Shown: one piece after another, positions 17,910 through 57,551 of the stretch
How positions within the stretch are numbered: the first letter of the stretch is position 1
Layout: every line of letters begins with the position of its first letter
Assembly: GCA_902579105.1 (NCBI GenBank)
Contig: CACHFM010000003.1
Location: 21,622-85,621, forward strand
DNA length: 64,000 bases
Reading direction: 5' to 3'
DNA from: an uncultured Pelagibacteraceae bacterium
GTDB taxonomy: Bacteria > Pseudomonadota > Alphaproteobacteria > Pelagibacterales > Pelagibacteraceae
The notes under the pieces: generated by a model
Database searches by the model: none
Seen by the model: only the letters and a program-made list of their open reading frames with translations
What the model was told of the DNA's origin: nothing
Position numbers and translations under genes: made by a program

Positions 17910-17911
17910 TT

Positions 17912-40078: not shown

Positions 40079-40089
40079 ATTTAATTTAT

Positions 40090-41217: not shown

Positions 41218-41220
41218 GAT

Positions 41221-42546: not shown

Positions 42547-42563
42547 AAATTAAGTTAACACAA

Positions 42564-42716: not shown

Positions 42717-42732
42717 TTATTGAGATTTATTT

Positions 42733-42761
42733 AAAAGGGCGCCACAATATATGTAGCGCCC
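42733..42761 (-). terminator. Intrinsic terminator after the amt and 74-aa genes
   Basis: GGGCGC-cacaatatatgta-GCGCCC stem; AAAA on + gives a T4 tail on the - strand. Confidence 0.7.
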
Positions 42762-42777
42762 AAATTTTACTTTTTAA

Positions 42778-43002: not shown

Positions 43003-43013
43003 ATTTTACTCCT

Positions 43014-44417: not shown

Positions 44418-44542
44418 ATACCTCTCTCCATATTAGTTTCTAAAACCCTATTAAATTTTTAAGGATGTGACAAATAAAAGAGTGTTTAAAAACCTAGTAT
44501 GGACAATATATTTTAAAAAATAATCAACTCTTGATTGAAGCT

Positions 44543-44947: not shown

Positions 44948-44956
44948 AGGTTACCT

Positions 44957-46369
44957 TTAAATTTTATGATAGTTATCTACTCCGACTGTATAATTTGTTC
45001 CAGCTAATGGAACTTTTGCTAACGCTGAAGCTTCAGATGTTAATGCAGCTAAATCTTCAGGTTCTAATGAGTGGATATTTGTTTTTCCACAAGCTCTAGC
45101 TAAAAGTTGAGCCTCTAATGTCATAGAATGCAAATAATTGTAAACTCTTAGAGCTGCATCATCTGGATTTAATCTTGCTCTCAATTTAGGATCTTGAGTA
45201 GCAACTCCTACTGGACATCTTCCAGTATGACAGTGATAACATTCACCAGCTTTTACACCCATCTCTTTTTCAAAATTTGCTTCTGGAATATCTTTGTTAC
45301 AATTTAATGCTATCATTGATCCAGTTCCAATAGCTATTGCGTCAGCTCCAAGAGCTAGAGCTTTAGCCATATCAGCGCCATCTCTCACTCCACCAGCATA
45401 AATTAATGTTACTTTTCCAGTTTTACCTACATCATCGATTGCTCTTCTTGCTTCTCTAATTGCAGCAATTCCAGGAATACCAGTATTTGCAGCAGCAATG
45501 TGAGGTCCAGCACCAGTAGATCCTTCCATTCCATCTAAATAGATAGAGTCAGGGTCACATTTTGCGGCCATTCGAACATCATCATAAACTTTTGAAGCTC
45601 CAAGTTTTAATTGAATTGGAACTTTATTTTTAGTTAGTTGTCTTAATTCTTCTACTTTAAGAGCAAGATCGTCTGGGCCTAGCCAGTCAGGGTGTCTTGC
45701 AGGTGATCTTTGATCAATTCCAGATGGCAATGATCTCATTTCAGCAACTTGGTCAGTCACTTTTTGACCCATTAAGTGTCCACCCATTCCAACTTTTTGA
45801 CCTTGTCCAATAAAAACTTCAATTCCATCTGCAAGTTGGGCATGATGCGGATTAAAACCATATCTTGATTGAATACATTGATAGTACCATTTTTCTGAAT
45901 ATCTTCTTTCGTCAGGTATCATTCCACCTTCTCCAGAACAAGTAGCGCTTCCAGCCATAGTGGCTCCTCTAGCTAAAGCTGTTTTTGCTTCGTAAGATAA
46001 TGCTCCAAAACTCATACCAGTTATGTAGACAGGTATATCTAACTCGATTGGGTTTTCACATCTTGGGCCAATTACAGTTTTTGTTTCACATTTTTCTCTG
46101 TAACCCTCGATTACAAATCTAGTAAGTGTTCCCGGCAAAAAAACTAAATCATCAAACGTAGGAATTTTTTTCATTAGTGCCATACCACGCATTCTATATC
46201 TTCCTAATTGAGATTTAATATGAATGTCGTCTATTACTTCTGGTGTAAAAATAGCATTGTACCCTAATAAACTTTTATTTCTTTTGCCCTCTTCATGAGC
46301 ATGAACATCTGCTTTTCCTCCGACACCTTTTCCATTTTTTTTAACTTTTTTAATTTTTTTCTTAGGCAT
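44957..46369 (-). CDS. mgsC: N-methylglutamate synthase FMN subunit (GlxD/MgsC)
   Basis: GMSFGALS, SGEGG, GQGQKVGMGG, SPARHPD, DGMEGSTG, GGVRDGAD, CYHCHTGRCPVGVATQD. Confidence 0.88.
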   Translation of the reverse strand: MPKKKIKKVKKNGKGVGGKADVHAHEEGKRNKSLLGYNAIFTPEVIDDIHIKSQLGRYRMRGMALMKKIPTFDDLVFLPGTLTRFVIEGYREKCETKTVIGPRCENPIELDIPVYITGMSFGALSYEAKTALARGATMAGSATCSGEGGMIPDERRYSEKWYYQCIQSRYGFNPHHAQLADGIEVFIGQGQKVGMGGHLMGQKVTDQVAEMRSLPSGIDQRSPARHPDWLGPDDLALKVEELRQLTKNKVPIQLKLGASKVYDDVRMAAKCDPDSIYLDGMEGSTGAGPHIAAANTGIPGIAAIREARRAIDDVGKTGKVTLIYAGGVRDGADMAKALALGADAIAIGTGSMIALNCNKDIPEANFEKEMGVKAGECYHCHTGRCPVGVATQDPKLRARLNPDDAALRVYNYLHSMTLEAQLLARACGKTNIHSLEPEDLAALTSEASALAKVPLAGTNYTVGVDNYHKI

Positions 46370-47223
46370 TAAATTGCTCCCTTCTTCTCTGTAGGTTCTA
46401 AATTATCATAATTCCAAAGTTTTTTACCTGCTACAATTTTTTTCATTTTACTTACATCAAAATTTTCACCAATTTCTGCAACTTTTAATTTTCTTTTTAA
46501 CCAATCTTGATCACCTGGTGTTAATTCCGCATCAACAGCATCACTACCATATGAGCCAATTTCTCCACCTATGAAAATTGTCCCATCGTACATAGAGTCT
46601 CCTAAATTTATTCCAACATCACCAAGAATAATTATTCTTCCTCTTTGCATCATAAATCCTGTAAATGCACCAGCATCGCCTCCGACAATAATAGTTCCAC
46701 CTTTCATATCAATACCAGTTCTCGCACCAACACTACCTTTACAAATTAAATCACCACCTCTAATAGCAGCCCCAAAACATGAACCTGCATTTTTTTCAAT
46801 AACAACTTTGCCAGCCATTAAATTTTCTGCACATGACCAGCCAACTCGTCCATTAATTCTTACAATAGGACCATCACACGAACCCATGCCAAAATATCCT
46901 AAACTTCCTTCGAAAATTAAATTTAATTTATTTAAAATACCTACTCCCAAACTATGTTTTCCTTGGGGGTTTTTAATAACAATTGTTCCATAACCTTGAC
47001 TCATTAAATTATCTATTTCTTTATTTGCTTCTGGTGCAGTCATGTTTTTTACATCAAGCTCTGTTCTTTTATTAAAGTCAACATCGTAAGTTCCAAAATA
47101 ATAAAAGTTTTCAGCTTCATCAGGATTAAAAAACTTCTGTTGAGTTCTTCCAGTTAAAACTTCAGTATGCATCCCCATTGATTGGGATTTAGATTTTTTC
47201 TCACTTGTTTTTAGATTTGCCAT
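46369..47223 (-). CDS. mgsB: N-methylglutamate synthase GXGXG subunit (GlxC/MgsB)
   Basis: Beta-helix GXGXG repeats (GSLGYFG, NAGSCFG, GARTG, GAFTGFMMQRG); start overlaps the mgsA stop. Confidence 0.87.
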   Translation of the reverse strand: MANLKTSEKKSKSQSMGMHTEVLTGRTQQKFFNPDEAENFYYFGTYDVDFNKRTELDVKNMTAPEANKEIDNLMSQGYGTIVIKNPQGKHSLGVGILNKLNLIFEGSLGYFGMGSCDGPIVRINGRVGWSCAENLMAGKVVIEKNAGSCFGAAIRGGDLICKGSVGARTGIDMKGGTIIVGGDAGAFTGFMMQRGRIIILGDVGINLGDSMYDGTIFIGGEIGSYGSDAVDAELTPGDQDWLKRKLKVAEIGENFDVSKMKKIVAGKKLWNYDNLEPTEKKGAI

Positions 47224-48155
47224 ACTTTTACCTCACCATCAAATGGATCATATGTATCAATTTCTTGAGGAAGAATTGATCTGATTGCTATTTCTTCTGA
47301 ACCCATTGCAACTAAATCATCTGACTCATAAAGAACCAAAGGTTTTGCTGCCATAGTATCTTTCGCCATTCCTAAAGAGTCTTTAGTTGCAACAAAATAT
47401 GTAAAAACTCCATCAAGACCAGCTAAGGACTCTTTCATTCCTTCTTCAAGTGTTGCTCCTTCCCTCATTTTTTGAGCTATATAAACTGCGATTAATTCTG
47501 AATCACATTCAGACATAAATCTCATACCTTTGTTTTCTAAAGCTCTTCTATTATTCCAATAGTTTGTTAGTTGTCCGTTGTGAACTACTGATACGTCACT
47601 AAAAGGATATCCCCAAAAAGGATGAGCAGATTTAATGTCAACTCCAGACTCAGTTGCCATTCTTGCATGACCAATAGCGTGTGTACCTACTAGTTTATCT
47701 AAATCATATTTATCACAAACCATTTTGGCATTACCTAGATCTTTGATTACTTCTAATGATTTACCCATAGAAAGAATTTCAACACCTGGAATACTTTCAA
47801 TTTTTTGTGAAAATTCTAAGAGGTCTTTTGTATCATAATCAATTTCATATCTTAATGAGTAGGGCAGAGTTCTTTCTTCTTTGACAATTTTTGCTCCCAT
47901 TTCAGCAAGATGTTGATCAACTATTTTTTTTCTTTCATCATAAACAGAAATATCTTCCATAACTGACGAACTTCCTTCGCCAACATTTTCTCCAACTTTA
48001 AAACGCATGATAAAATTTTTACCATCAGTATCGCCATACAAAGCATAGCCAGTTGAGTCTTCACCTCTATGTTTTAATGCTTGAAGCATACCTTGAAGTT
48101 CACTTCCAACGTTTGAAGATTTACCTCTATGAATTAATCCTGCAATTCCGCACAT
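47211..48155 (-). CDS. mgsA: N-methylglutamate synthase amidotransferase subunit (GlxB/MgsA)
   Basis: Ntn-hydrolase MCGIAG, HRGEDSTG, GHARMATES, VHNGQLTN, CDSE. Confidence 0.88.
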   Translation of the reverse strand: MCGIAGLIHRGKSSNVGSELQGMLQALKHRGEDSTGYALYGDTDGKNFIMRFKVGENVGEGSSSVMEDISVYDERKKIVDQHLAEMGAKIVKEERTLPYSLRYEIDYDTKDLLEFSQKIESIPGVEILSMGKSLEVIKDLGNAKMVCDKYDLDKLVGTHAIGHARMATESGVDIKSAHPFWGYPFSDVSVVHNGQLTNYWNNRRALENKGMRFMSECDSELIAVYIAQKMREGATLEEGMKESLAGLDGVFTYFVATKDSLGMAKDTMAAKPLVLYESDDLVAMGSEEIAIRSILPQEIDTYDPFDGEVKVWQI

Positions 48156-48184
48156 ATTTTCCTCTCTAATATTTTTTTAGTGAC

Positions 48185-49654
48185 CTATGGTAGACAATCA
48201 AGATAAGTGTCCAGATCCCATTGAGTTGTTGCACCTAAAAATTTTTCCCATTCATCATTTTTATACCAATGAAATATTTTATACATTTCATCAGGCATTG
48301 CAGATTGAATAACTTTATCTTCTGATAGTCTATCCAAAGCTTCCCCTAGACTTAAAGGTAATTTTTTAACATTTTTTCCTGCTTTTTGAGCTTCATAGAT
48401 ATTTCTTGATTCTGGTTTTCCAGGGTCAAGGTTGTTAGTTAATCCATCATCAAATGCTTTTAATAATGAAGCACCCATTAAATAAGGATTGTGCATTGAG
48501 TCTACTGAACGGTATTCAAATCTACCTGGAGCAGAAACTCTCAAACCACAAGTTCTGTTTTGGTAACCCCAATCAGCATAAACAGGAGCCCAAAAACCTT
48601 GGTCCCATAATCTTCTGTAAGAATTTACAGTTGATGAACCAATAGCTGTAAGTGCTGGAAGATGTTTCATAACACCACCAATAGATTTTAATCCAATTTT
48701 TCCTGGCAATTGAACGTCTTTAGTATCGGGCATAAAAGTATTAGTTCCACCTTCAACATAGCTAAATACTTCATCCATCCCTGGCAGTGATTTGTGGCCT
48801 AGTTTGTTTACTTTATCTTTTCCACCTGTCCATAAAGACATATTAGTATGACAACCACTAGCAGATACTCCCATAAATGGTTTTGTCATAAAACAAGCAA
48901 TTAAATTAAACTCTCTTGCTACTTGAGCGCATATTTGTCTATAAGTTGATAATCTATCCGCATTTCTCAATACATCGTCAAACATCCAGTTTAATTCTAA
49001 TTGTCCAGGAGCATCCTCATGATCACCTTGAATCATGTCAAAACCCATTGCACGAGCGTATTCCATTACCTTCATAAACACTGGTCTTAAAGACTCAAAT
49101 TGATCAATATGATAACAGTATGGTTTTGAAAAACCTTTGCCAGTAGGTGTTCCATCTTCATTTCTTGTTAACCACATCATTTCTGGCTCAGTTCCAACTC
49201 TTAGCTGATAGCCATGTTTTTTCTTAAATTCTTTAGCTATAATTCTTAAATTACCTCTACAGTCAGATGTTAAGTGACCACCTGGGTTTACTCTTTCTTC
49301 TCTATTTCTAAAACAAGTTACAAAAACTCTAGCTACTTTTTTATCCCAAGGTAATTGACAGAAAGTTTCTGGATCAGGAATCCCGACGAGCTCTTTTGCT
49401 TCTGGTCCATATCCAATGTAATTATTATGACGATCTAAAAATAAGTTTGCAGTAGCTCCATAAACTAATTGAAAACCTTTTTCACAAGTTCTTTCCCAAT
49501 GGTCAGCAGGAATTCCTTTACCAACAACTCTTCCTGTTACTGAAATGAATTGAAAAAAAATATAATCAATTTTAAGTTCATTAATTTTTGCTCTAACTTG
49601 TTTTACCAGTTTAGCTCTTCCTGGCTGGTTAACATGTTTTTCTAGATCTGTCAT
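48185..49654 (-). CDS. Second glutamine-synthetase-family gamma-glutamyl:amine ligase
   Basis: GTEPEMMW, DHEDAPGQLELN, KPFMGVSASGCH, NSYRRL, NRT, EYRSVD; Glu flap replaced (QGFWAP). Confidence 0.88.
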   Translation of the reverse strand: MTDLEKHVNQPGRAKLVKQVRAKINELKIDYIFFQFISVTGRVVGKGIPADHWERTCEKGFQLVYGATANLFLDRHNNYIGYGPEAKELVGIPDPETFCQLPWDKKVARVFVTCFRNREERVNPGGHLTSDCRGNLRIIAKEFKKKHGYQLRVGTEPEMMWLTRNEDGTPTGKGFSKPYCYHIDQFESLRPVFMKVMEYARAMGFDMIQGDHEDAPGQLELNWMFDDVLRNADRLSTYRQICAQVAREFNLIACFMTKPFMGVSASGCHTNMSLWTGGKDKVNKLGHKSLPGMDEVFSYVEGGTNTFMPDTKDVQLPGKIGLKSIGGVMKHLPALTAIGSSTVNSYRRLWDQGFWAPVYADWGYQNRTCGLRVSAPGRFEYRSVDSMHNPYLMGASLLKAFDDGLTNNLDPGKPESRNIYEAQKAGKNVKKLPLSLGEALDRLSEDKVIQSAMPDEMYKIFHWYKNDEWEKFLGATTQWDLDTYLDCLP

Positions 49655-49725
49655 TTTCTACCTCTTTAAAATATTTTATTAATTAAAGCGTAACTGAAAA
49701 AATTATTAGTGTCTAGACTTCAAGA

Positions 49726-51051
49726 TCAACTCCAAGGGAAGGGACTGTTCGAAGTAGGGTGAAGTTCACCTTTCTCGTATCGGTTGAATCTAAAAGGTTT
49801 TAATAAATCGCTCTCAGTACCTAGAATTTCTTTTGCAACAAGTTCACCAACTCCGATCATCTTATAACCATGATTAGCATCTGCAATCATGTAAACATTT
49901 TCTAAAAATCTATCAAAAATTGGAAAAGAGTCTGGAGTCATACACCCAAGACCACCTGATGGACCTTTTCTATATAAATCACTTTTACCTTCAAATCTCT
50001 TTTGACAATGTGCTAAAGCTGAACACCACATATCATTGAAAGCTTCTGTAGTTTGATATTCAGGTGAATCTAAACCATATGGATCAACATTTACTTCATC
50101 AAAATGTTTATTAACAATATATGGTGAAGTTCCACCTTGAACTCCTAAACCTTCAATGTCTGGTTTATAATAAATTCCCCAAATTTTGTCAGTAATTAGT
50201 TTTTTAGTTTTATCTGAATATAACGGCGCTGTTGAATCAACATGAATTACTGGCGGTTGTTTACCATTATTCATTTTTAAAAAATCTGGTTCAACACCAA
50301 TTACACCTTCTTGAAGAAACCAATATTTCCACATATCAGTTTCGTGAATCTTACCATCTTTACCTTTAATTTTTGCAGTTTTAGGAAGTTCTAACATATT
50401 CCAAAAATCTCTAGCCCATGGACCTGCACCAACAACTACTTGTTCACATTCTATAGTGCCTTTGTTAGTTTCTACTCCTGTAACAGCTTTACTATTACTT
50501 CCTCGTTTAAATCCTGTGACTTTAATTCCTTTAAGTACGCTTACACCATTTGCAGTAGATTTATTTTCTAGAGCTTTAATTGAATCTTTATTAAATGCAT
50601 AACCACCTTTCTTCTCATGAAGCACAGATGTTATTCCTTGAGCTTGCCAATCATCAAACATTCCTTTCATGTAATTCATGCAATCTTTTTCACCTTCTAT
50701 AAATTCAGATTCATAACCTATTGCTTTCTGTTGCTCATAAATTGAAGCAACATCTTCATGCATAACTTCTGGCGATATTTGTAAATAACCCACTGGATTA
50801 TATTTAAAAGCTTTTGGATCGCTTTCCCAAACTGAAACTGAATGAGCCATTAATTCTCTCATTGCTGGTTGAAAATAATTATTTCTAACAACACCGCAGG
50901 CAATTCCGCTAGCTCCTGCAGCTGTATCTTTTTTTTCTAAAACGATAATGTCACCTGGGTTTTTATATGTTTCTGAAAGCTTCCAAGCGGTGCTTAATCC
51001 ATGAATTCCACCACCTATAATTACCACTTTAGCCTTTTTAGGTATCGCCAT
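49726..51051 (-). CDS. FAD-dependent amine oxidoreductase (SoxB/MgdA/monomeric sarcosine oxidase-like)
   Basis: GGGIHG, GASGIACG, GAGPWA, TPDSFP, HGYKM; start moved to ATG 51051 (MAIPKK) from the track's 51087. Confidence 0.85.
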   Translation of the reverse strand: MAIPKKAKVVIIGGGIHGLSTAWKLSETYKNPGDIIVLEKKDTAAGASGIACGVVRNNYFQPAMRELMAHSVSVWESDPKAFKYNPVGYLQISPEVMHEDVASIYEQQKAIGYESEFIEGEKDCMNYMKGMFDDWQAQGITSVLHEKKGGYAFNKDSIKALENKSTANGVSVLKGIKVTGFKRGSNSKAVTGVETNKGTIECEQVVVGAGPWARDFWNMLELPKTAKIKGKDGKIHETDMWKYWFLQEGVIGVEPDFLKMNNGKQPPVIHVDSTAPLYSDKTKKLITDKIWGIYYKPDIEGLGVQGGTSPYIVNKHFDEVNVDPYGLDSPEYQTTEAFNDMWCSALAHCQKRFEGKSDLYRKGPSGGLGCMTPDSFPIFDRFLENVYMIADANHGYKMIGVGELVAKEILGTESDLLKPFRFNRYEKGELHPTSNSPFPWS

Positions 51052-51097
51052 CAAAAAAAATTTTAATTTTTCTAGCAACAATAACAATAATAAAAAT

Positions 51098-51118
51098 TAT
51101 ATATATAATATATATATA
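51098..51118. promoter_or_regulatory. TA-palindrome, putative operator copy 1
   Basis: TATATATAT-AAT-ATATATATA upstream of the SoxB-like gene; same architecture at 53882. Confidence 0.4.
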
Positions 51119-51136
51119 GAGAATAATCTAAACTCT

Positions 51137-51487
51137 CTAATAACTAAGATTTTTTAAAGTATTTAAATAATCACTAAATTCATCAATAAAAGACTGACTT
51201 GGTCTAATATTCTTTATTCGCTGATCAGTTGAGGTTTTTTCTAGTATAAAAAAACCTTTTTCACAAGCTTCTGTAATTATTAGAGCTGATTTGGGTCTTG
51301 AAGTTTTAAATAATTTAGTTTTTAGCTCTTCAACTGATAATTTTTCACTATTATGAAAAGCTGACATTACTAATAACATCATGTGATAATGCGAGGGAGA
51401 TTTTCTAAAAAAATAATTACTCGAAGTATGAGAATGTCTCATTTGATCTTCCCAAAAATTTAATAATGTTTGCTTATTTTTTTTCAC
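51137..51487 (-). CDS. Small winged-helix (MarR-like) protein, putative regulator
   Basis: GTG start; KLSVEELKTKL..SRPKSALIITEACEKGFF..DQRIKNIRPS resembles a wHTH with the D-x-R wing. Confidence 0.6.
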   Translation of the reverse strand: MKKNKQTLLNFWEDQMRHSHTSSNYFFRKSPSHYHMMLLVMSAFHNSEKLSVEELKTKLFKTSRPKSALIITEACEKGFFILEKTSTDQRIKNIRPSQSFIDEFSDYLNTLKNLSY

Positions 51488-51491
51488 TTAT

Positions 51492-53828
51492 TTAAGTTCT
51501 AACTCTAGTTTTTTGTGGATCATAATGTGGAAATCCAACTACTTTTGCTGAGATTCTTTTTTGTTCTCCATCAATTTTTCCAACTTCAACTTCAGTACCT
51601 ATCTCAGAATGGCCAATATCAATTCTACACAAAGCTATATTTTTATTAAGTGTTGGAGAAATACATCCACTTGTTATAATTCCTACTTGAGCCCTTCCAA
51701 TATGTACGCAATCACCATGATTAGCTTTTTCTTTACTGATTAATTCAAGTCCAACTAATTTTTTTTGTGGGTTTTCTTTTCTTTTAATTAAACTTTCTTT
51801 TCCAATAAAGTCATCAGTTTTAGTTTTTAAAGGAACAGTAAAACCAACTCCTGCTTCAAAAGGATCAACCTGTCCATCAAATTCATTTCCAAAAAGAATT
51901 AATCCAGCTTCAATTCTTAACAAATCTAATGCGCCAAAGCCTGCTGGTATTAAACCTTCATCTTTACCTGCTTCTATAACTTTATCCCATACTTTAGGAG
52001 CATCAGATGGGTGGCACCAAATTTCATATCCTAACTCGCCTGTATATCCTGTTCTTGAAACTATTAAAGGTATTCCGTTTAATTCTTCAAGTCTACAAAT
52101 AGTAAACCTAAACCATTGCAATTCGGAAATAGAAGGTTGAGTTGGTGGAGTAAAAATAATTTTTTCTAATATTTTTCTACTATTTGGTCCTTGTAAAGAA
52201 ATATTATTAATTTGATCAGTAGAATCTTTAATTAAAACTTTATAATTTTTCTTTTTAGCCTGTTCTTTTAACCATTGACCTGCATATTCATCACCACAAA
52301 TCCATCTAAAACCATGGTCACTTAGTTTCAAAAGCGTTCCATCATCAAACATTGTTCCATTTTCATAACACATAGAAGAATAAACAACCTGACCAACTGA
52401 AAGTTTTTTTATGTTTCTAGTTAATGTATAATTCATTAATTCTTCAGCATCTGGACCAAGTATTTCAAATTTTCTTAAAGATGATAGGTCAATAACAACA
52501 GCTTTTTCACGACAAGCCATATGCTCGTTTATTATTCCATGATTTGTGTAATCATTAGGTAACCAAAAACCTCTAGCCTCAACAAAGTTTCTTGTTAGCT
52601 TAGATGTTTTTTCGTAAAAACCTGTATTTCTAGTTAATTTTGTTTCAGAGTCAGTTTTCATTCTAAAAGCAAAAGATTTTCTAAATTCTTTTTTTTTATC
52701 ATAAGTTCTAACAAAAATATCTGTAGGATTCCATGAATTACATGCATCTATATCACTTGGGCATGCTGTTGTTCCACAAGTCAAATCTTTAAGAGCCTTA
52801 AACATTACATAATCTCCAGGTCTAGCAAAAGATTCATCTGATAATACTGAATTAAGTCCTCCAGCTGAGGTATTAAAAAATAAATTTATAGCATGCCAAC
52901 CTTTTTTTTTCTGAACTCCAAACTTTTCCATAGATTCATTTAAATTGTCGGAACAATTTGGATGACCAAAATATCCTGAGTCTTCATAATATTTGGATGT
53001 ACATGCTAAATTAAATGTATCATGCCTTCCGACTGTGTCTCTAATTACTTCAACTAAAGGTTCATGGTCAGTATCGTAAAATTTAGAAAATAATCCTGGT
53101 CCTGGAAAAGTATTTCCCATAAAGGTTCTAGTTGTTTGCCAATCAAGACCTTTTTCAATTTTTTTGTCTAATTTAGCTGTATCAAATGCAACAAAATCTG
53201 AGCACTGCCTTCCAGTGGGAGAAATAACTTGAATGTAATCACCTTCTTTAACTTGAAAAGAAATTGCAGTTTGACGGTCTATATTTGTTTCACTTTTAGG
53301 TTCAAAGATTGGGTTAGGAATTATTGAGTGCTCTTTATCTCTAGTAATTTTTGCTCTTTTTATGAAAATAGTTAGATTAGTTGTTGGATTTTGTTCATGA
53401 ATCATCATTTCTTGACCAGGAGCAGAAAAGATACAATAACATTTGTCTTTAGCTTTTAGTTTTACTTTTTCATGAGGTTTTGAGTCTTTATCAAAAACAA
53501 TTGCAGACTTAGATGCATTGATATCTAAATTTCTTTTTTTTAATTGATACGAAGCTGCAAGCGAACTCTCAATTTTTTTTGAAAGTATTGTTTTTATTTC
53601 AGATGAACTTTTGTTTTCTTTTAGATTTAATATAGCTAGTTCAGATTTTCCATCTTTATTAAAGACTGTAATTTCGCAAATTTGATTTCCTTCATCATTT
53701 ACTATTTCTATTTCATCATCTGGAAGTATTTGAATACCTGTTAAACCTCCTCCATTAACAACATGTCTTTCAACTCCAAGTGGTAAAGCATTTAAACCTG
53801 GCTCTTTAATGTCTAAACTTGTAAGCAT
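51492..53828 (-). CDS. tdm: Trimethylamine N-oxide demethylase (DUF1989 + GcvT fusion)
   Basis: GRQCSDF, RHDTFNLAC, HPNCSDN, TACP in the DUF1989 part; DLSSLRKFE and SRTGYTGELGYE in the GcvT part; divergent from tmoX. Confidence 0.9.
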   Translation of the reverse strand: MLTSLDIKEPGLNALPLGVERHVVNGGGLTGIQILPDDEIEIVNDEGNQICEITVFNKDGKSELAILNLKENKSSSEIKTILSKKIESSLAASYQLKKRNLDINASKSAIVFDKDSKPHEKVKLKAKDKCYCIFSAPGQEMMIHEQNPTTNLTIFIKRAKITRDKEHSIIPNPIFEPKSETNIDRQTAISFQVKEGDYIQVISPTGRQCSDFVAFDTAKLDKKIEKGLDWQTTRTFMGNTFPGPGLFSKFYDTDHEPLVEVIRDTVGRHDTFNLACTSKYYEDSGYFGHPNCSDNLNESMEKFGVQKKKGWHAINLFFNTSAGGLNSVLSDESFARPGDYVMFKALKDLTCGTTACPSDIDACNSWNPTDIFVRTYDKKKEFRKSFAFRMKTDSETKLTRNTGFYEKTSKLTRNFVEARGFWLPNDYTNHGIINEHMACREKAVVIDLSSLRKFEILGPDAEELMNYTLTRNIKKLSVGQVVYSSMCYENGTMFDDGTLLKLSDHGFRWICGDEYAGQWLKEQAKKKNYKVLIKDSTDQINNISLQGPNSRKILEKIIFTPPTQPSISELQWFRFTICRLEELNGIPLIVSRTGYTGELGYEIWCHPSDAPKVWDKVIEAGKDEGLIPAGFGALDLLRIEAGLILFGNEFDGQVDPFEAGVGFTVPLKTKTDDFIGKESLIKRKENPQKKLVGLELISKEKANHGDCVHIGRAQVGIITSGCISPTLNKNIALCRIDIGHSEIGTEVEVGKIDGEQKRISAKVVGFPHYDPQKTRVRT

Positions 53829-53881
53829 ATATTACTCACATTAAATAAATTCATAACAATATTATAACAGCAGTTAATAAT

Positions 53882-53902
53882 TATATATATAAAATATATA
53901 TA
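53882..53902. promoter_or_regulatory. TA-palindrome, putative operator copy 2 (tdm/tmoX divergent region)
   Basis: TATATATAT-AAA-ATATATATA, ending 7 bp upstream of the tmoX -35. Confidence 0.4.
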
Positions 53903-53909
53903 ACTATTC

Positions 53910-53938
53910 TTGACTGTCGTAATTATTAAGAAGATACT
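53910..53938 (+). promoter_or_regulatory. Sigma70-type promoter for tmoX
   Basis: TTGACT (53910-15), 17 bp spacer, GATACT (53933-38); AGGGG RBS before 53971. Confidence 0.55.
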
Positions 53939-53970
53939 TAAAATACTTAATATTAAGGAAAGGGGAAAAA

Positions 53971-54924
53971 ATGAGAAAAATAATATCTCTTTTATCTGCT
54001 TTAGTTATTTCAGTTGTTTCATTTACTGGAGTAGCAAATTCTGCAGATAGTAAGAAACCTATTGTTATCCCAACACATAACTGGTCAAGTCAAATTGTAA
54101 TGGCTTATGTGATCGGCGGAATTATGGAAAGTATGGGTAACAATGTTAAATACGTAAACGCTGATTCACAGGCAGTTTACGAGTCAATTAGAATTGGGGA
54201 TGTAACTATATCTCACGAAGTATGGGAGTCTGCATTTGGTAAATCATTTACAACAGCTCTAGACAAAGGTGGTTTGCTTGATTGGGGTGACCATGAAGCA
54301 AGAACACTTGAAGATATGGGGTATCCAAACTGGGTAACAGAAAAAGGTTTATGCCCAGGTCTACCTGACTGGACTGCATTAAAAAACCCAGATTGTGCTA
54401 AAAACTTTACAACACCTGACTCTCCAGATGGAAAAGGAAGAATGTTGGAAGGTCCACAAACTTGGCATGGTGATTTAATTCCTCAAAGAGTTGATGCATT
54501 AGGCTTAGGAGATCTTTGGTGGGTTAAATTTGCTGGAAGTGCAGATGCGCTTTGGGCAGAATTAGCAGCAGCTAAAAAAGAAGGAAGAGGAACTATTATA
54601 TTTAACTGGACTCCAAACTTTACAGATGGTGCTGGTTTTACGTTTATAGACTTCCCTCCATACACAGCTGGTTGTAGACCTGAAGATGGTGGCGATGGAA
54701 AATGTGGTTCACCAGATGGTTACTTGAAAAAAGCAGTAAATGAGGATTTTCCAAAAACTCATCCAAAAGCTGCAGCTATGTTCAAGAAATTGTCATTCTC
54801 TACAAGTCAAATTGGTGCAATGGCAGCTTTAGTTGACGTTGACAAAATGACTCATGAAGATGCAGCAAAAAAATGGTTAGCTGACAATAAGAATGTGTGG
54901 GAAGAATTTACACACTCTCATTAA
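53971..54924 (+). CDS. tmoX: TMAO ABC transporter substrate-binding protein
   Basis: HNWSSQ, HEVWESAF, EGPQTWHG, FNWTPNF; resembles SAR11 TmoX from memory; divergent from tdm. Confidence 0.9.
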   Translation: MRKIISLLSALVISVVSFTGVANSADSKKPIVIPTHNWSSQIVMAYVIGGIMESMGNNVKYVNADSQAVYESIRIGDVTISHEVWESAFGKSFTTALDKGGLLDWGDHEARTLEDMGYPNWVTEKGLCPGLPDWTALKNPDCAKNFTTPDSPDGKGRMLEGPQTWHGDLIPQRVDALGLGDLWWVKFAGSADALWAELAAAKKEGRGTIIFNWTPNFTDGAGFTFIDFPPYTAGCRPEDGGDGKCGSPDGYLKKAVNEDFPKTHPKAAAMFKKLSFSTSQIGAMAALVDVDKMTHEDAAKKWLADNKNVWEEFTHSH

Positions 54925-54946
54925 GGTTATAAAAAAATAAATTTAG

Positions 54947-54983
54947 AAATCTCCCCCAACAATGTTGGGGGGGATTTTTTTTT
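54947..54983 (+). terminator. Intrinsic terminator after tmoX
   Basis: AAATCTCCCCCAAC-aat-GTTGGGGGGGATTT stem followed by a T run. Confidence 0.9.
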
Positions 54984-55017
54984 AGAATTTAAGGTTAATG
55001 ATTAAAAAAATAGATAA

Positions 55018-55479
55018 ATGATAAAATATTTTTTTTATATATCTCTAAGTTTATTATTTTTTAATTTATTATTAGCAAAAGATATAAACATACAAGAAAA
55101 TATTAATCTCAGTTTTACATGTGATTTAGATAAAAAAATAATTAAAAATTCTAAATACAATTATCAAACTTTTTTAGCTAAAGATTTAAATGAAAAGGGT
55201 TTGGATAAATTCAAAATTGAATCTTTAAAACCAGATACACTTTCTATTAATGGATTATCATTATTTGTTTCAAAATCTGAAAAATTAAGTGTTAAGGTGG
55301 TTAATAAGGATATAGTTTTATTTAGAGCAATTGATCAAGAAAAGAATTACTCAGAGTCAGGTATATTAACAATAAAATCAGGCGAATTAGTTCACGAAAT
55401 TACAAGAAATATAAAAAGTGAAAATTCAGAAAAAGATATTTCTATTTATTCATGCAGAAAAAATAAGGAAAATGTCTGA
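55018..55479 (+). CDS. Secreted hypothetical protein
   Basis: Signal peptide (..NLLLA/K); two Cys near the termini. Confidence 0.7.
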   Translation: MIKYFFYISLSLLFFNLLLAKDINIQENINLSFTCDLDKKIIKNSKYNYQTFLAKDLNEKGLDKFKIESLKPDTLSINGLSLFVSKSEKLSVKVVNKDIVLFRAIDQEKNYSESGILTIKSGELVHEITRNIKSENSEKDISIYSCRKNKENV

Positions 55480-55513
55480 TTTTTTTTTAATTAATCTTGT
55501 GTAAAATATTAAT

Positions 55514-55891
55514 ATGAAAAATTTTATTATTAGCTTAATTTTTGGTTTTCTAATTATATCTGAAGCTTTAGCTCGTAGCACAGGGTGTAAGGAAGGAAAT
55601 TGTGAAAATGGTTATGGCAAGTGGGTTTATACAGATAAAACAACTTATGAAGGATATTGGGTCGGCACAAAAAAACATGGTCAAGGTACAGAAACTTGGC
55701 CTAATGGCTATATTTATAAAGGTGAATTTAAGAACAGTGAATGGAGTGGACAAGGAACTTTAACTTTTCCAAACGGCGCAACATACGAAGGTGAATGGGC
55801 TAATGGATTTATGAATGGAGAAGGAACTTTTACCTGGTCTGATGGAAAAGTAAAAACGGGCACTTGGATAAATGGAAAATTACAAGAATAA
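55514..55891 (+). CDS. Secreted MORN-repeat protein
   Basis: Signal peptide, CKEGNCENGYG, then YEGYW..GQG / YKGEF..GQG / YEGEW..GEG repeats. Confidence 0.9.
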   Translation: MKNFIISLIFGFLIISEALARSTGCKEGNCENGYGKWVYTDKTTYEGYWVGTKKHGQGTETWPNGYIYKGEFKNSEWSGQGTLTFPNGATYEGEWANGFMNGEGTFTWSDGKVKTGTWINGKLQE

Positions 55892-55899
55892 TTAAAACA

Positions 55900-56451
55900 A
55901 TGTTAAAAGATAATTATTTAAATAAATTAAAAGAATTACCAGAAACAATAAAACAATTCGTTGGTCTTGTTGCTTTAACAATTATTGTAATTTTATCTTT
56001 TGGTATTTTAAATATCTTTTGGGGTGGAGGAGATGAATTAATAAAAAAAATGAAATTAGAAGAGGAAAGAATTGCACAAGAAAAAAAACTTAATGCACTT
56101 ATATCTCAGCTTCCATCAGGAGTTTTAGTTACCTTTGATGGAACAGATAACTTTAGATTGACTGATGAACTTTATGAAGCAGTTTGTAATGCTACAGAAC
56201 TTATACCTCAACGTGCTATTATGGCTGCTCATTTTTTAAATTATGAAGCTTATGAGTTATATACAATTAATGGCAATAAAATTGATGAAACGTATGTTAA
56301 ATGGGATAAAGAGAAAAATAAATGTTTTGCCGGCTATACTGTAAGTGGAGATAATGTTGGGGTAAATAAAACTGCAAATGTAAGTGGAGAGGTTTTAAGT
56401 TTTTTAAGCACCGGTATTGATACCAGAGTATATTTTATAAAAAATTTTTAA
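55900..56451 (+). CDS. Membrane-anchored hypothetical protein
   Basis: Likely start ATG 55900 (MLKDNYL); one TM, a coiled segment, then a domain with two Cys. Confidence 0.7.
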   Translation: MLKDNYLNKLKELPETIKQFVGLVALTIIVILSFGILNIFWGGGDELIKKMKLEEERIAQEKKLNALISQLPSGVLVTFDGTDNFRLTDELYEAVCNATELIPQRAIMAAHFLNYEAYELYTINGNKIDETYVKWDKEKNKCFAGYTVSGDNVGVNKTANVSGEVLSFLSTGIDTRVYFIKNF

Positions 56452-56516
56452 TGGAGAAAAATAATAATTATATAGATTTTATTTTAATTAAATTTCATAT
56501 AACTTATTAAAATATT

Positions 56517-57548
56517 ATGAGCGATGCAGTAATTAAGTGTGAGTCTGTTTACAAAATTTTTGGTACAAATGCTAAAAAGATGCTTCAAGAAGCAAATGGG
56601 AATGTAGACGCAAAAAAATTTCAAGATAATGGATGTATAGTTGGTGTGAACAATGCGTCTTTTGAAGTTTCAAAAGGAGAGATGTTAGTTGTAATGGGTT
56701 TATCAGGATCAGGTAAGTCAACATTACTAAGATGTATTTCTAGATTAACGGACGCAACAGATGGAAAAATTTTTATAGAAGGTCAAGATTTACTTTCATT
56801 AAACAATAAAGAGTTAATTGAACTTAGAAGAAATAAAATGGGAATGGTTTTTCAGAGTTTTGCTCTTCTTCCTCATAAAACGGTTGTAGAAAATATTGCT
56901 TTTCCTCTTCAAATTAAAGGTATCAAGACTGAAGAAAGTATTAGTAAAGCAATGGACATGGTTAAACTTGTTGGACTTGATGGAAGAGAAAATTATTTTC
57001 CACGAGAACTTTCTGGAGGACAACAACAAAGAGTAGGTATTGCTCGATCATTAGCTGTTGAACCAGATATTTGGTTTTTAGATGAACCTTTTTCTGCACT
57101 AGATCCATTAATTAGAAAAGAAATGCAAGATGAATTTTTAAGACTACAAGAAAAATTACAAAAAACAATTATGTTTATTACTCATGATTTTGATGAAGCA
57201 CTAAAGCTTGCGGATCGTATAGCAATTATGAAAGATGGTATAATTGAACAGCTAGATACACCTGCAAATATTGTTTTAAATCCAGCAACCGAATATGTAA
57301 GAAAATTTACCGAAGAAGTGCCAAGAGAAAAAGTTTTATTAATTGAAGATGTGATGGATCCATCTACTTCTAATGATTTGAGTGATTTAAAAGTTTTAAA
57401 AGATGAAATTATTGAAAATGTTGCAGAAAAAATTTTAACTCAAGAAAAATCAGTAACAGTCATTGATAATAACAATAAAATTGTAGGCTCTATAAATCCG
57501 ACAAAAATAATTAATACAGTTTTTGGAGGAAGAAAAAATAATAATTAA
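56517..57548 (+). CDS. Betaine-family ABC ATP-binding protein of the TMAO (TmoXWV-type) transporter
   Basis: GLSGSGKS, LSGGQQQRVG, LDEPFSALDP; neighbours tmoX. Confidence 0.92.
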   Translation: MSDAVIKCESVYKIFGTNAKKMLQEANGNVDAKKFQDNGCIVGVNNASFEVSKGEMLVVMGLSGSGKSTLLRCISRLTDATDGKIFIEGQDLLSLNNKELIELRRNKMGMVFQSFALLPHKTVVENIAFPLQIKGIKTEESISKAMDMVKLVGLDGRENYFPRELSGGQQQRVGIARSLAVEPDIWFLDEPFSALDPLIRKEMQDEFLRLQEKLQKTIMFITHDFDEALKLADRIAIMKDGIIEQLDTPANIVLNPATEYVRKFTEEVPREKVLLIEDVMDPSTSNDLSDLKVLKDEIIENVAEKILTQEKSVTVIDNNNKIVGSINPTKIINTVFGGRKNNN

Positions 57549-57551
57549 ATT

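Follow-up and report, generated by a model that had tools for sequence, protein, structure and literature searches.

An uncharacterised operon beside the TMAO demethylase gene of a SAR11 bacterium and its probable role in methylated amine metabolism

Gene organization of the locus

The locus was analysed in a 64,000-nucleotide stretch (the window) of an uncultured Pelagibacteraceae (SAR11) bacterium (assembly GCA_902579105.1, contig CACHFM010000003.1, positions 21,622 to 85,621 of the forward strand). On the minus strand, tdm is followed by a 116-aa ORF, a DAO-family flavoprotein, a second glutamine-synthetase (GS)-like protein (GS2), three mgs-type genes, a 134-aa protein, an Amt transporter, a 74-aa ORF and a terminator (Table 1). 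The canonical gmaS lies beyond the terminator. The first-pass annotation had noted tmm, tdm, gmaS and mgsABC in the absence of dmmDABC, a SoxB-like flavoprotein and a second GS-family protein between tdm and mgsA, Trp in place of the flap Glu in both GS-family proteins, and an insertion in the second one. We found each of these points to be correct. Pfam annotation of all substantial ORFs of the window and a tblastn search with an MgdABCD set revealed no DmmDABC-type gene (no DUF3445 protein) and no mgdABCD/soxBDAG within the 64 kb.

Table 1. Features of the locus. Positions are those of the window; the names Mgs2A, Mgs2B, Mgs2C, s134, s116 and s74 are ours.
Feature	Position	Strand	Assignment
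ygeX-like gene	40090-41217		In one transcription unit with gmaS
gmaS	41221-42546	-	Canonical gamma-glutamylmethylamide synthetase; transcription unit separate from the operon
Terminator	42737-42761	-	Strong intrinsic terminator (10-bp stem, 7 GC pairs, T-run) that closes the unit
s74	42778-43002	-	Unannotated 74-aa single-TM ORF immediately after amt; conserved partner of this Amt
amt	43014-44417	-	Amt-family transporter (ortholog of SAR11_1310); ammonium or methylammonium uptake, inferred from family
s134	44543-44947	-	Conserved protein of unknown function that always follows Mgs2C; candidate extra subunit
Mgs2C	44957-46369	-	FMN glutamate-synthase-domain subunit
Mgs2B	46369-47223	-	GXGXG subunit
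Mgs2A	47211-48155	-	Class-II (Ntn) glutamine-amidotransferase subunit
GS2	48185-49654	-	GS-family protein of 489 aa, putative gamma-glutamyl-amine ligase of a distinct subfamily (ortholog of SAR11_1305)
Flavoprotein	49726-51051	-	Stand-alone DAO-family (SoxB/MgdA-like) FAD flavoprotein (ortholog of SAR11_1304); probable oxidative N-demethylase. The ORF extends to 51087; the ATG at 51051 is the likely true start, since homologs are 442 aa
s116	51137-51487	-	116-aa ORF, 4 nt after tdm, of unknown function
tdm	51492-53828	-	TMAO demethylase (DUF1989 + GcvT domains); produces DMA + formaldehyde
tmoX	53971-54924	+	TMAO-binding protein
tmoW	56517-57548		Follows tmoX
tmoV	57552-59705		Follows tmoW
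tmm	62159-63490	-	

The assignments were based on profile searches with Pfam and NCBIfam models, on comparison with PDB sequences and on synteny. Tdm scored 1108 bits against NF053776 (cut-off 1100) and matched Pfam DUF1989, GCV_T and GCV_T_C. GmaS scored 623 bits against TIGR03105 (cut-off 469.6) and 562 bits against RhGmaS (7cql). GS2, in contrast, remained below every curated cut-off (TIGR03105, 296 of 469.6; GlnA, 235 of 429; PuuA, 208 of 650) and is 31% identical to the GmaS of the window. For the flavoprotein, Pfam DAO matched the N-terminal half only, the score against TIGR01373 (soxB) was 79.5 bits versus a cut-off of 529, and the best PDB sequence hit was SoxB (2gag_B) at 58 bits. Relative to MgdA, it carries an insertion of roughly 60 residues and a conserved HPxSNSPFPWS tail. 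Mgs2A matched Pfam GATase_6/7 and starts with MCGIAG, and thus the nucleophile Cys is intact; Mgs2B matched GXGXG and is further supported by synteny; and Mgs2C matched Glu_synthase with 298 bits. The Amt was assigned from its translation and from Pfam Ammonium_transp hits on orthologs. For s134 no relative was found in Pfam, NCBIfam or the PDB, and for s116 none in Pfam or NCBIfam; the latter resembles a small winged-helix regulator by eye only. Structure prediction was not informative: the two models obtained had pLDDT values of 47 and 54, the latter being the AF2 model of s134. The tmo genes were recognized from their translations and from synteny with SAR11 and non-SAR11 loci carrying OpuAC/ABC_tran/BPD_transp_1; the identity of the transporter follows PMC8918994.

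Conservation of the operon

The arrangement is not due to chance. The flavoprotein gene lies directly upstream of that for GS2 in 72 of 72 SAR11 species-representative loci that reach that far, and s134 is present in 72 of 72. Tdm lies upstream of the operon in 60 of 62 SAR11 loci; s116 is conserved in 60 of 62 at 67–85% identity and was absent from the non-SAR11 loci. Of 80 flavoprotein loci returned from diverse metagenomes, 42, all of them non-SAR11, contain the same block of flavoprotein, GS2, MgsABC and s13x (s13x denoting the s134-type protein), usually with a divergent GntR regulator; this is about two thirds of the loci that extend far enough downstream. The block was also found in long contigs of SAR324, Arenicellales and Alphaproteobacteria, and the unit is conserved from SAR11 to soil and sediment bacteria. 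GS2 is 76–81% identical across phyla, and Mgs2C is 78–90% identical from SAR11 to soil metagenomes. Mgs2A is 54–61% identical to its non-SAR11 orthologs, and s134, also present in 26 non-SAR11 loci, is 65–81% identical. The s74 ORF is 33–42% identical to the 74–75-aa ORF that follows amt in four other loci (L001, L087, L089 and L090; L numbers designate individual loci of the comparison), and the region is 82% identical at the DNA level to L024. GS2, Mgs2, s134 and amt are abundant in four ocean metatranscriptomes, with amt showing the highest transcript-contig depth of the cluster.

The association of the components is not absolute. In four non-SAR11 lineages (L001, L085, L088 and L090) GS2-MgsABC-s13x has no flavoprotein within 10 kb, and about 22 flavoprotein loci have no GS2 beside them. 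The flavoproteins of the latter are nested within the same clade, so that the substrate of the flavoprotein may be a free small molecule. In strain HTCC1062, the flavoprotein (SAR11_1304) is strongly induced by nitrogen limitation and is the second most induced protein, while GS2 (SAR11_1305) is slightly reduced; the flavoprotein is regulated oppositely to GS2, Mgs2 and Amt (PMC3870248).

The genomic context links the operon to methylated amines. Genes for tdm, tmm or tmoXWV lie beside it in SAR11 and in L001, L002, L004, L085, L088, L090 and L095, which are from different lineages. On the other hand, when viewed from the flavoprotein, most operons in soils, sediments and freshwater stand alone, with no tdm within 8 kb but often with an Amt transporter. 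This fits monomethylamine (MMA) at least as well as dimethylamine (DMA). The neighbours vary and include a formamidase with an amide ABC transporter (L039), MOSC with a reductase (L088) and PhyH with GcvT (L119). Together with the wide occurrence in soils and sediments without tdm or tmm, and the fact that GS2 belongs to a broader, uncharacterised clade of ligases with a WDxGxW/F-AP flap, this leaves the possibility that the operon handles another small amine, for example ethylamine, ethanolamine or hydroxylamine/N-methylhydroxylamine. Its position beside tdm in SAR11 would then reflect general clustering of nitrogen-scavenging genes. We consider this unlikely, given the at least seven loci with tmm, tdm or tmoXWV, the conserved GmaS-type pocket (see below) and the extreme sequence conservation from soil to ocean (MgsC 82–90%), which points to one universal small substrate.

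Interpretation of the pathway

What the sequences show directly is the gene order, its conservation, the motifs and the paralogy of the Mgs proteins; the ligase, synthase, demethylase and transport activities, as well as the substrate, are inferred from homology, conserved residues or context. A literature search returned no biochemical or genetic data for any protein of the unit. With moderate confidence we propose that the unit encodes a non-canonical version of the gamma-glutamyl/N-methylglutamate (NMG) route for small methylated amines. In this view, the Amt/s74 pair would bring in (methyl)ammonium, or the amine would be made inside the cell by Tdm. GS2 would use ATP to ligate the amine to the gamma-carboxyl of glutamate. 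Mgs2A would hydrolyse the gamma-glutamyl amide and channel the amine to the FMN subunit Mgs2C, with Mgs2B and probably s134 as structural partners, yielding an N-methylated glutamate. Finally, the SoxB-like flavoprotein would remove a methyl group oxidatively as formaldehyde. In most SAR11 strains, as in this window, the unit supplies the only Mgs synthase, and the canonical GmaS would then also have to feed it.

The amine taken by GS2 is most readily thought of as MMA, although at less than even likelihood; DMA is a somewhat less likely alternative, and another amine is unlikely. A self-contained pathway for MMA only, in which Amt/s74 imports methylammonium, GS2 acts as a GmaS analog, Mgs2ABC with s134 is the NMG synthase and the flavoprotein is a single-subunit NMG oxidase or dehydrogenase, explains the stand-alone operons and the Amt linkage across phyla more simply than DMA does. 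Such operons contain one enzyme for each of the three NMG-pathway steps, and in several marine clusters the ligase and synthase of the operon are the only gamma-glutamyl ligase and synthase seen beside tmm or tdm. JGI names some orthologs of the flavoprotein 'methylglutamate dehydrogenase subunit A'. However, this reading, in which the DMA step of SAR11 lies elsewhere or does not exist, makes GS2 redundant with the GmaS-type ligases that sit beside it in 65 of 66 loci of the streamlined SAR11 genomes and in L086, L128 and L132. It also makes the flavoprotein redundant with MgdABCD, which is complete in one cluster with it in L086, while Mgd-like genes lie next to it in about 12 further loci; this argues that the flavoprotein is not merely the NMG dehydrogenase. 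It leaves unexplained how HTCC1062 grows on TMAO as nitrogen source (PMC8918994), given that SAR11 is documented to lack dmmDABC (PMC5520151). We regard the MMA-only pathway as a plausible alternative, at less than even likelihood.

The operon very probably processes small methylated amines and is a reasonable, but unproven, candidate for the DMA step that SAR11 is known to lack. The first-pass annotation had inferred that GS2 gamma-glutamylates DMA and that the flavoprotein demethylates the product to gamma-glutamylmethylamide for MgsABC. This interpretation is only partly supported by our analysis. The flavoprotein and GS2 are a real, widely conserved and co-oriented gene pair, the coexistence of GS2 with a bona fide GmaS in nearly all SAR11 makes redundancy of the two unlikely, and a single Mgs synthase would suffice for both ligases, matching the majority SAR11 genotype. 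However, the mgsABC next to GS2 is not the canonical NMG synthase but the co-conserved paralog of GS2 itself. The simplest flow is therefore from GS2 to MgsA directly, without a flavoprotein step in between, as the four lineages without a nearby flavoprotein also suggest. In strains that keep both Mgs sets (HTCC1062, PMC3870248; L024), each ligase sits beside its own synthase, and the annotated scheme does not explain why GS2 always travels with its own Mgs paralog plus s13x, nor does it sit well with the different regulation of the flavoprotein and GS2. Moreover, DAO/SoxB-type flavoenzymes oxidise amines whose nitrogen lone pair is available, and no member is known to act on the N-methyl of an amide. 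The demethylation of gamma-glutamyl-dimethylamide is thus chemically disfavoured, and we consider the scheme as written very unlikely. If the amine is DMA, we favour a route from DMA to gamma-glutamyl-dimethylamide (GS2), N,N-dimethylglutamate (Mgs2ABC), NMG (flavoprotein) and glutamate (SoxBDAG/Mgd elsewhere in the genome), although formation of N,N-dimethylglutamate by an Mgs-type synthase has no known precedent.

Alternatively, the flavoprotein alone could be the missing enzyme, that is, a DMA oxidase or dehydrogenase giving MMA plus formaldehyde, with GS2 and Mgs2ABC simply processing the MMA. This would be ordinary chemistry for a secondary-amine-oxidising DAO-family enzyme, and SAR11_1304, which in SAR11 is the first gene after tdm and s116, was already raised as a possible amine demethylase by Smith 2013 and Lidbury 2017 (PMC3870248; PMC5520151); the involvement of GS2 is new. 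Yet this would not explain the need for two ligases, most operons are not near tdm or any other DMA source, and no DAO-family enzyme is known to act on a substrate as small and carboxylate-free as DMA. We consider this possibility unlikely.

Relation to the characterised ligase and NMG synthase

The sequence of GS2 is that of a GmaS-like amine ligase rather than a glutamine synthetase. The flap reads SGATWSP in GmaS and DQGFWAP in GS2, and in a HMMER alignment to an archaeal GS, GYEAPV aligns with GFWAPV. The pocket and catalytic residues of RhGmaS (Tyr147, Gln175, Asp177, Glu179, Glu186, Asn188 and Lys30'; PMC7948447) are all conserved in GS2, and the motifs IQGDHEDAPGQLELNW and NSYRRLWDQGFWAP are nearly invariant in all loci. 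The insertion after GCHTNMSLW is 24 residues relative to the GmaS of the window, and is conserved in all GS2 orthologs examined. GS2 appears to keep an Asp at the GS Asp50' position, where GmaS has Ala, which does not suggest a roomier amine pocket; the alignment is uncertain here. In favour of the plausibility of DMA, RhGmaS itself turns over DMA at 61% of its kcat for MMA, with only the Km being poor at 16 mM (PMC7948447).

Mgs2ABC is 30–52% identical to the second, canonical mgsABC set, with values of 30–36% for MgsA and 49–52% for MgsC. The canonical set is kept next to gmaS in only 11 of 65 SAR11 loci and is absent from this window. In HTCC1062 it corresponds to SAR11_1313-1315, which Sun 2011 (PMC3160333) found to be the best match to the characterised NMG synthase of M. 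universalis.

Organization of the locus

The stretch has a G+C content of about 30%, and its closest relatives are single-cell genomes of Pelagibacteraceae, with the second GS-family protein (GS2) up to 99% identical, so it comes from a SAR11 bacterium. The features of the window and of the loci compared with it are listed in the table below. Pfam annotation of the window and a tblastn search with a complete MgdABCD set showed neither dmmDABC nor mgdABCD/soxBDAG anywhere in the 64 kb. No DUF3445 (DmmA) protein appeared among the Pfam hits of the window's ORFs or among any annotated neighbours in the related loci; the genome-wide absence of dmmDABC in SAR11 rests on the literature (PMC5520151). 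The first-pass annotation had described Trp at the flap position of both ligases, an insertion in GS2 after GCHTNMSLW and the lack of a dimethylamine (DMA) monooxygenase in the window. These observations held in every detail, and the insertion measures 24 residues.

Coordinates of the features discussed, in the window and in related loci (L numbers)
Sequence	Feature	Coordinates	Strand	Remarks
Window	tdm	51492-53828	-	NF053776, 1108 bits
Window	s116	51137-51487	-	116-aa ORF
Window	flavoprotein	49726-51051	-	DAO family; ORF extends to 51087
Window	GS2	48185-49654	-	second GS-family gene
Window	mgsA	47211-48155	-
Window	mgsB	46369-47223	-
Window	mgsC	44957-46369	-
Window	s134	44543-44947	-	134-aa ORF, no family
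Window	amt	43014-44417	-
Window	s74	42778-43002	-	unannotated 74-aa single-TM ORF directly after amt
Window	DNA region around s74	42641-43016		82% identical to L024
Window	terminator	42737-42761	-	strong intrinsic terminator
Window	amt-gmaS gap	42547-43013		no remnant of the canonical mgsABC
Window	gmaS	41221-42546	-
Window	ygeX-like gene	40090-41217	-	diaminopropionate-ammonia-lyase-like
Window	tmoXWV	53971-59705	+
Window	tmm	62159-63490
Window	possible methylated-compound cluster	334-8270		second OpuAC-type binding protein, GcvT-like aminomethyltransferase (391 aa), molybdopterin oxidoreductase (776 aa), double-length ABC permease, ABC ATPase
Window	gene pair	17163-19081		Amdase family (Asp/Glu-racemase-like) with creatinase/M24-peptidase family
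L002	the same gene pair	1153-3081		5 kb upstream of the GS2 operon
L088	gene pair after s129	15381-17306		MOSC-domain protein and FNR-type FAD/NAD/2Fe-2S reductase
L039	region after the operon	15683-21327		urea/short-chain-amide-type ABC transporter (Peripla_BP_6, BPD_transp_2) and formamidase/acetamidase
L001	similar binding protein after tmm	19725 to the end of the locus
L002	cluster K7 protein	15859-16425
L004	cluster K7 protein	14257-14808
L001	cluster K7 protein	823-1371
L090	cluster K7 protein	7151-7690
L128	two extra GmaS-like ligases flanking amt	2365-6919
L132	two extra GmaS-like ligases flanking amt	2357-6861

Two further groups of genes in the window drew our attention. The five genes at 334-8270 may represent another cluster for uptake and demethylation of a methylated compound, and the Amdase/creatinase pair recurs in L002, an unrelated organism with a 3-Mb genome. 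The ORF between tdm and the flavoprotein, s116, has no family; by eye it resembles a small winged-helix regulator, which would be notable in a genome with very few regulators. A relaxed Pfam search with s116, s134 and s74 and a profile search of s134 against PDB gave no meaningful hits. An Rfam scan of 39-56 kb found nothing credible (one sub-threshold Ysr251 hit at 26 bits, against a gathering score of 100). A promoter scan found fewer sites than the shuffled controls and is uninformative in this AT-rich DNA, so that only the terminator was used. Structure prediction, for which only homologs at or above 77% identity entered the alignments, gave unusable models for the flavoprotein (pLDDT 47) and for s134 (pLDDT 54).

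In HTCC1062 the corresponding genes are SAR11_1303 (tdm), SAR11_1304 ('monomeric sarcosine oxidase'), SAR11_1305 (glnT), SAR11_1306-1308, SAR11_1310 (amt), SAR11_1313-1315 (glxBCD) and SAR11_1316 (glnT, the gmaS) (PMC3160333, PMC3870248). Methylated amines are a significant marine nitrogen pool and precursors of aerosols. Lidbury et al. 2017 showed that dmmDABC is absent from all SAR11 and argued that this creates a metabolic bottleneck that lets DMA escape to the atmosphere (PMC5520151). A dmm mutant of Ruegeria pomeroyi cannot use DMA (PMC5520151). Gao et al. 2022 then showed that HTCC1062 grows on TMAO as nitrogen source and had to postulate an unknown 'isoenzyme'. Smith 2013 found SAR11_1304 to be the second most induced protein under N limitation and speculated that it is an amine demethylase; SAR11_1305, 1308 and 1316 fell slightly, and the Amt SAR11_1310 was seen only in N-replete cells (PMC3870248). 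Our literature searches found no paper that mentions gamma-glutamyl-dimethylamide or N,N-dimethylglutamate in this context, and none that assigns a role to SAR11_1305. The gap is thus a recognised open question and the flavoprotein has been suspected before, whereas the ligase part of the idea is new.

GS2 is a distinct predicted amine ligase

The window's gmaS is a clear ortholog of the crystallised gamma-glutamylmethylamide synthetase RhGmaS of Rhodovulum sp. 12E13 (PDB 7CQL), with 562 bits to this protein and 623.2 bits to the GmaS equivalog model TIGR03105 ('type III glutamate-ammonia ligase'; cut-off 469.6 bits). GS2 reaches only 162 bits to RhGmaS, 188 bits to an archaeal GS and 296.2 bits, in two stretches, to TIGR03105; it is 31% identical to gmaS. 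It also fell below the cut-offs for type I glutamine synthetase (TIGR00653, 235.5 bits against 429) and for PuuA (NF045547, 208.5 bits against 650), and no PuuC aldehyde dehydrogenase or PuuD hydrolase partners were found in the window or in the related loci.

Yet every residue that Wang et al. (PMC7948447) assign to the monomethylamine (MMA) pocket and to catalysis in RhGmaS is conserved in GS2: Tyr147, Gln175, Asp177, Glu179, Glu186, Asn188 and Lys30'. The flap Glu (PGYEAP in glutamine synthetase) is replaced by Trp. GS2 has PYCY, IQGDHEDAPGQLELNW and GFWAP; the motifs IQGDHED[AS]PGQ[LI]ELN and NSYRRLWD[TQK]G[FY]WAP are nearly invariant in the loci examined. At the GS Asp50' position, which is Ala in RhGmaS, the HMMER alignment to archaeal GS places the invariant GS2 Asp74 (NLF[LVI]DR) on the Asp of the GS YFDGSS motif, although the loop is about 10 residues longer and the Asp is not conserved in the wider clade. 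In a library clustered at 50% identity the family collapses to essentially one cluster. Related full-length clusters at 38-52% identity share the WDxGxW/F-AP flap but mostly lack the insertion. GS2 is thus, as inferred from its sequence, a gamma-glutamyl-amine ligase of its own subfamily. We considered that GS2 might be a true glutamine synthetase forming a GS/GOGAT pair with MgsABC, but rejected this because it lacks the flap Glu and has GmaS-type catalytic residues, and because the redox-neutral Mgs reaction with glutamine would be futile.

GS2 is linked to its own synthase

GS2 homologs are 76-81% identical in SAR324, Arenicellales, Alphaproteobacteria and organisms with 3-5 Mb genomes. In all ten long non-SAR11 contigs inspected, GS2 is followed by GATase, GXGXG and Glu_synthase genes, and in the nine contigs long enough to show it a family-less ORF of about 125-134 aa (s13x) comes next. 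Identity to the window is 54-63% for MgsA and MgsB, 78-80% for MgsC and 73-77% for s134.

A search of genome contigs with GS2 was evaluated for 80 of more than 538 hits, all of them Pelagibacteraceae; it served the analysis of SAR11 synteny but not of phylogenetic breadth. In these 80 SAR11 species-representative loci the flavoprotein lies directly upstream of GS2 in 72 of 72, s134 follows mgsC in 72 of 72, and tdm lies upstream in 60 of 62. The s116 ORF is conserved only within SAR11 (60 of 62 loci); non-SAR11 operons carry a GntR-family regulator instead.

The mgsABC genes of the window have the organisation of an N-methylglutamate (NMG) synthase: three adjacent genes for a class-II GATase with an N-terminal Cys (Pfam GATase_6/7; it begins MCGIAG), a GXGXG protein and an FMN glutamate-synthase-domain protein. 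They are nevertheless paralogs (30-52% identity) of a second mgsABC set, which lies between amt and gmaS in only 11 of 65 SAR11 loci (L007, L014, L018, L019, L023, L024, L027-L029, L034 and L066). That second set corresponds to SAR11_1313-1315, which Sun 2011 found to be the best match to the characterised M. universalis NMG synthase (PMC3160333). The window and the majority of SAR11 loci have lost it cleanly while keeping gmaS, so that the model strain HTCC1062 is atypical in this respect. It follows that the mgsABC described in the first-pass annotation is the GS2-linked paralog (Mgs2ABC). In most SAR11 it is the only Mgs synthase, so the product of GmaS must be processed by it too.

The s134 protein always follows Mgs2C (orthologs in L001-L004 and L085-L090) and is 65-81% identical from SAR11 to soil metagenomes, with no Pfam, NCBIfam or PDB relative. 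Its N-terminus is variable (Lys-rich in SAR11), whereas its core is invariant: IGQxIGYRYDVNLxPD...DLNWLEDVHMGYE...RDMIARELL. It is a candidate extra subunit of the synthase. The s74 ORF is homologous (33-42%) to the 74-75-aa ORF that follows amt next to the GS2 operon in unrelated bacteria (L001, L087, L089 and L090). Amt plus s74 therefore belongs to the conserved unit, and s74 is probably a conserved small partner of this Amt paralog. A conserved protein of about 180-190 aa without a Pfam match (cluster K7) recurs beside the GS2 operon in non-SAR11 bacteria, including L001, L002, L004, L090 and about 16 metagenome loci, and is absent from the SAR11 loci. Neighbour clusters K9, K11, K17, K19 and K20 were discarded as antisense ORF artefacts of GC-rich contigs; the coordinates show this for K9 and K11, and for the others it rests on the absence of a Pfam hit and a position antisense within the operon.

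Genomic context of the flavoprotein

A metagenome scan seeded with non-SAR11 flavoprotein sequences returned 80 loci from soils, sediments, freshwater and sea. The dominant architecture, found in 42 loci, is a divergent GntR followed by flavoprotein-GS2-MgsA-MgsB-MgsC-s13x, often with an amt plus a small ORF nearby. Here tdm is adjacent only in L095 and in the SAR11-like L168. About 22 loci with enough sequence have the flavoprotein without GS2. One tight clade of these (L093, L094, L096, L100, L101, L104, L107 and L111; 72-74% identical to the GS2-linked flavoproteins) lies beside GMC oxidoreductases, a class I/II aminotransferase, a second DAO protein, a JmjC protein and an ArsR/SBF/glyoxalase group, and another lies beside MgdA/MgdC-like genes. 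In a neighbour-joining tree they are nested within the GS2-linked sequences rather than forming a deep paralog.

Mgd-like genes also flank complete operons. L086 reads flavoprotein-GS2-MgsABC-s130-B3_4-MgdA-MgdB-MgdC-MgdD, followed by a GmaS-type ligase. The possibility that the flavoprotein merely replaces MgdABCD was rejected, since the two co-occur in the same clusters. The flavoprotein of the window scores 79.5 bits against the SoxB-family model TIGR01373 (cut-off 529 bits), and no soxA, soxD or soxG is in the window. In L086 the flavoprotein and the full MgdABCD are separate genes, 19% identical over the N-terminal 225 residues. In the alignment to MgdA, an Asn lies at the position of the His in the ARHDAV motif, which is the covalent-flavin site.

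In L128 and L132 two extra GmaS-like ligases (Trp flap, DHEDG[NI]GQFE motif, 36-38% identical to gmaS) flank an amt gene immediately upstream of GntR and flavoprotein-GS2-MgsABC, which makes three amine ligases for one synthase. In L088 the MOSC-domain protein and the reductase come directly after s129 of the operon, with tdm-tmoVWX upstream; this pair resembles mARC/YcbX-type N-hydroxy/N-oxide reductases, which hints at N-oxygenated amine intermediates in that organism. In L039, a divergent SAR11, the amide-type transporter and the formamidase/acetamidase take the place of amt-gmaS after the operon.

Transcription in ocean metatranscriptomes

In four ocean metatranscriptomes, contigs at or above 90% identity to the 40000-54000 region cover amt, mgsC, GS2 and s134 at word depths of hundreds to tens of thousands. 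The flavoprotein reaches about 60-1200, and gmaS and tdm are far lower, which is in part a conservation artefact. These depths are only semi-quantitative, since nucleotide conservation differs between the genes (tdm 77%, gmaS 82%, GS2 83%, mgsC 87%); only the flavoprotein, GS2, amt and gmaS are roughly comparable, and the apparent 100-fold deficit of tdm is not interpreted. The unit is clearly transcribed in situ, and GS2 appears more abundant than gmaS at similar nucleotide conservation.

Possible substrates and order of the reactions

The gene order, its conservation, the family scores and the conserved residues are direct results of the sequence comparisons, whereas all functional assignments, including ATP-dependent ligation of an amine to glutamate by GS2, the synthase reaction of Mgs2ABC, demethylation by the flavoprotein and the role of s134, are inferences. 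The general function is well supported by homology and context and we consider it likely: an ATP-dependent ligase, then an amidotransferase/FMN synthase, then a SoxB-like demethylase, acting on a small methylated amine. A scheme that also fixes the order of the steps is held with less confidence, though still as more likely than not. The identity of the amine is not settled by the data. MMA is the leading candidate but falls short of a firm preference, DMA by any mechanism is possible and ranks somewhat lower, and another amine is unlikely.

In favour of MMA, the stand-alone operon contains one enzyme for each NMG-pathway step, an Amt-family transporter is linked to it, and the GmaS pocket is conserved in GS2. 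In favour of DMA, GS2 coexists with a genuine GmaS in 65 of 66 SAR11 loci and with GmaS-type ligases in L086, L128 and L132, a redundancy that would be hard to explain in streamlined genomes. The flavoprotein coexists with a full MgdABCD, which fits one extra demethylation for one extra methyl group. Marine lineages place the operon beside tdm, tmm and tmoXWV, with no Dmm in view. RhGmaS already turns over DMA at 61% of its kcat for MMA, limited only by Km, and SAR11 needs some DMA route to grow on TMAO.

The first-pass annotation had proposed that DMA is gamma-glutamylated by GS2 and that the flavoprotein then demethylates the gamma-glutamyl amide. This interpretation is partly supported: the pathway idea is plausible in outline, but its specific chemistry is unlikely, and we rank this order lowest among the DMA readings and regard it as very doubtful. 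DAO/SoxB-type enzymes oxidise amines and are not known to act on amides; GS2 is always coupled to an amidotransferase with an intact nucleophile; and four lineages have GS2-Mgs2ABC-s13x with no flavoprotein within 10 kb. We favour an alternative in which gamma-glutamyl-dimethylamide, made by GS2 from the DMA released by Tdm, would be converted to N,N-dimethylglutamate by Mgs2ABC, then to NMG by the flavoprotein and to glutamate by Mgd/SoxBDAG, with no free MMA intermediate. This requires an unprecedented secondary-amine reaction in the Mgs synthase. In a third option the flavoprotein would oxidise DMA directly, which is chemically simplest but does not explain the second ligase.

If either of the last two readings were true, which is possible but less likely than not, the operon would be the long-sought DmmABC-independent route for DMA in SAR11, SAR324, Arenicellales and many other bacteria, and the proposed 'DMA bottleneck' of the marine methylated-amine cycle would not exist in the most abundant ocean bacteria. 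The analysis gives this question a concrete target: a defined, highly conserved and abundantly transcribed unit directly behind tdm in SAR11, located exactly where a documented pathway gap exists, with a previously uncharacterised ligase, synthase paralog, small subunit and flavoprotein. Even if the substrate proves to be only MMA, a second, widespread form of the NMG pathway exists, most SAR11 have lost the canonical NMG synthase and must rely on this paralog, and gmaS-based marker surveys miss GS2.

Comparison with known systems

The unit is best filed as a variant of the NMG-type pathway. The canonical pathway, GmaS-MgsABC-MgdABCD of Methyloversatilis universalis, Methylocella silvestris and Ruegeria pomeroyi, uses the same three kinds of step and the same protein superfamilies, namely a GS-like ATP-dependent ligase, a three-subunit synthase (class-II GATase, GXGXG, FMN glutamate-synthase domain) and a SoxB-like flavoprotein, and is likewise associated with tmm, tdm and amt. 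In the unit described here the ligase is a distant relative of GmaS, the synthase subunits are paralogs of the canonical ones, and a conserved extra protein of about 130 aa follows the synthase. The predicted oxidase is a single polypeptide without the alpha, gamma and delta subunits or a THF-binding domain, and the gene order is flavoprotein first. RhGmaS shares with GS2 the catalytic Asp177 and Glu186, the amine-pocket residues and the Trp flap, but Asn176 is Gly in GS2, the flap is of GS length, five residues shorter than in GmaS, and the longer loop corresponding to Asp50' seems to keep an Asp where RhGmaS has Ala48'. The Km of RhGmaS is 27 µM for MMA and 16 mM for DMA (PMC7948447).

DmmDABC, the haem/PAS HODM-type DMA monooxygenase with a DUF3445 haem subunit (DmmA, PF11927) and reductase and THF-binding partners (PMC5520151), would have the same physiological role if the DMA reading is right, moving nitrogen and carbon from DMA towards the MMA/NMG level downstream of Tdm. 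There is no homology at all: Dmm is an NADPH- and O2-dependent haem monooxygenase acting on free DMA, whereas the unit here would spend ATP to tether the amine to glutamate and would use flavin chemistry. PuuA-PuuB of E. coli (gamma-glutamylputrescine synthetase plus FAD-dependent gamma-glutamylputrescine oxidase) is a precedent for a GS-like gamma-glutamyl ligase paired with a DAO-family oxidase that acts on the gamma-glutamylated product. However, PuuB oxidises the distal free amine of the conjugate, not an amide nitrogen substituent, and in the present unit an Mgs synthase is found instead of PuuC and PuuD. Finally, dimethylglycine oxidase/dehydrogenase followed by sarcosine oxidase/dehydrogenase is a precedent for two successive flavin-dependent N-demethylations of an N,N-dimethyl amino acid by two related enzymes, the logic that we propose for the flavoprotein followed by Mgd/SoxBDAG if N,N-dimethylglutamate is formed. 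The substrate backbone would be glutamate rather than glycine, the flavoprotein lacks the fused THF-binding GcvT domain of DMGO/DMGDH, and its PDB sequence hits to DMGDH are only 27-28 bits.
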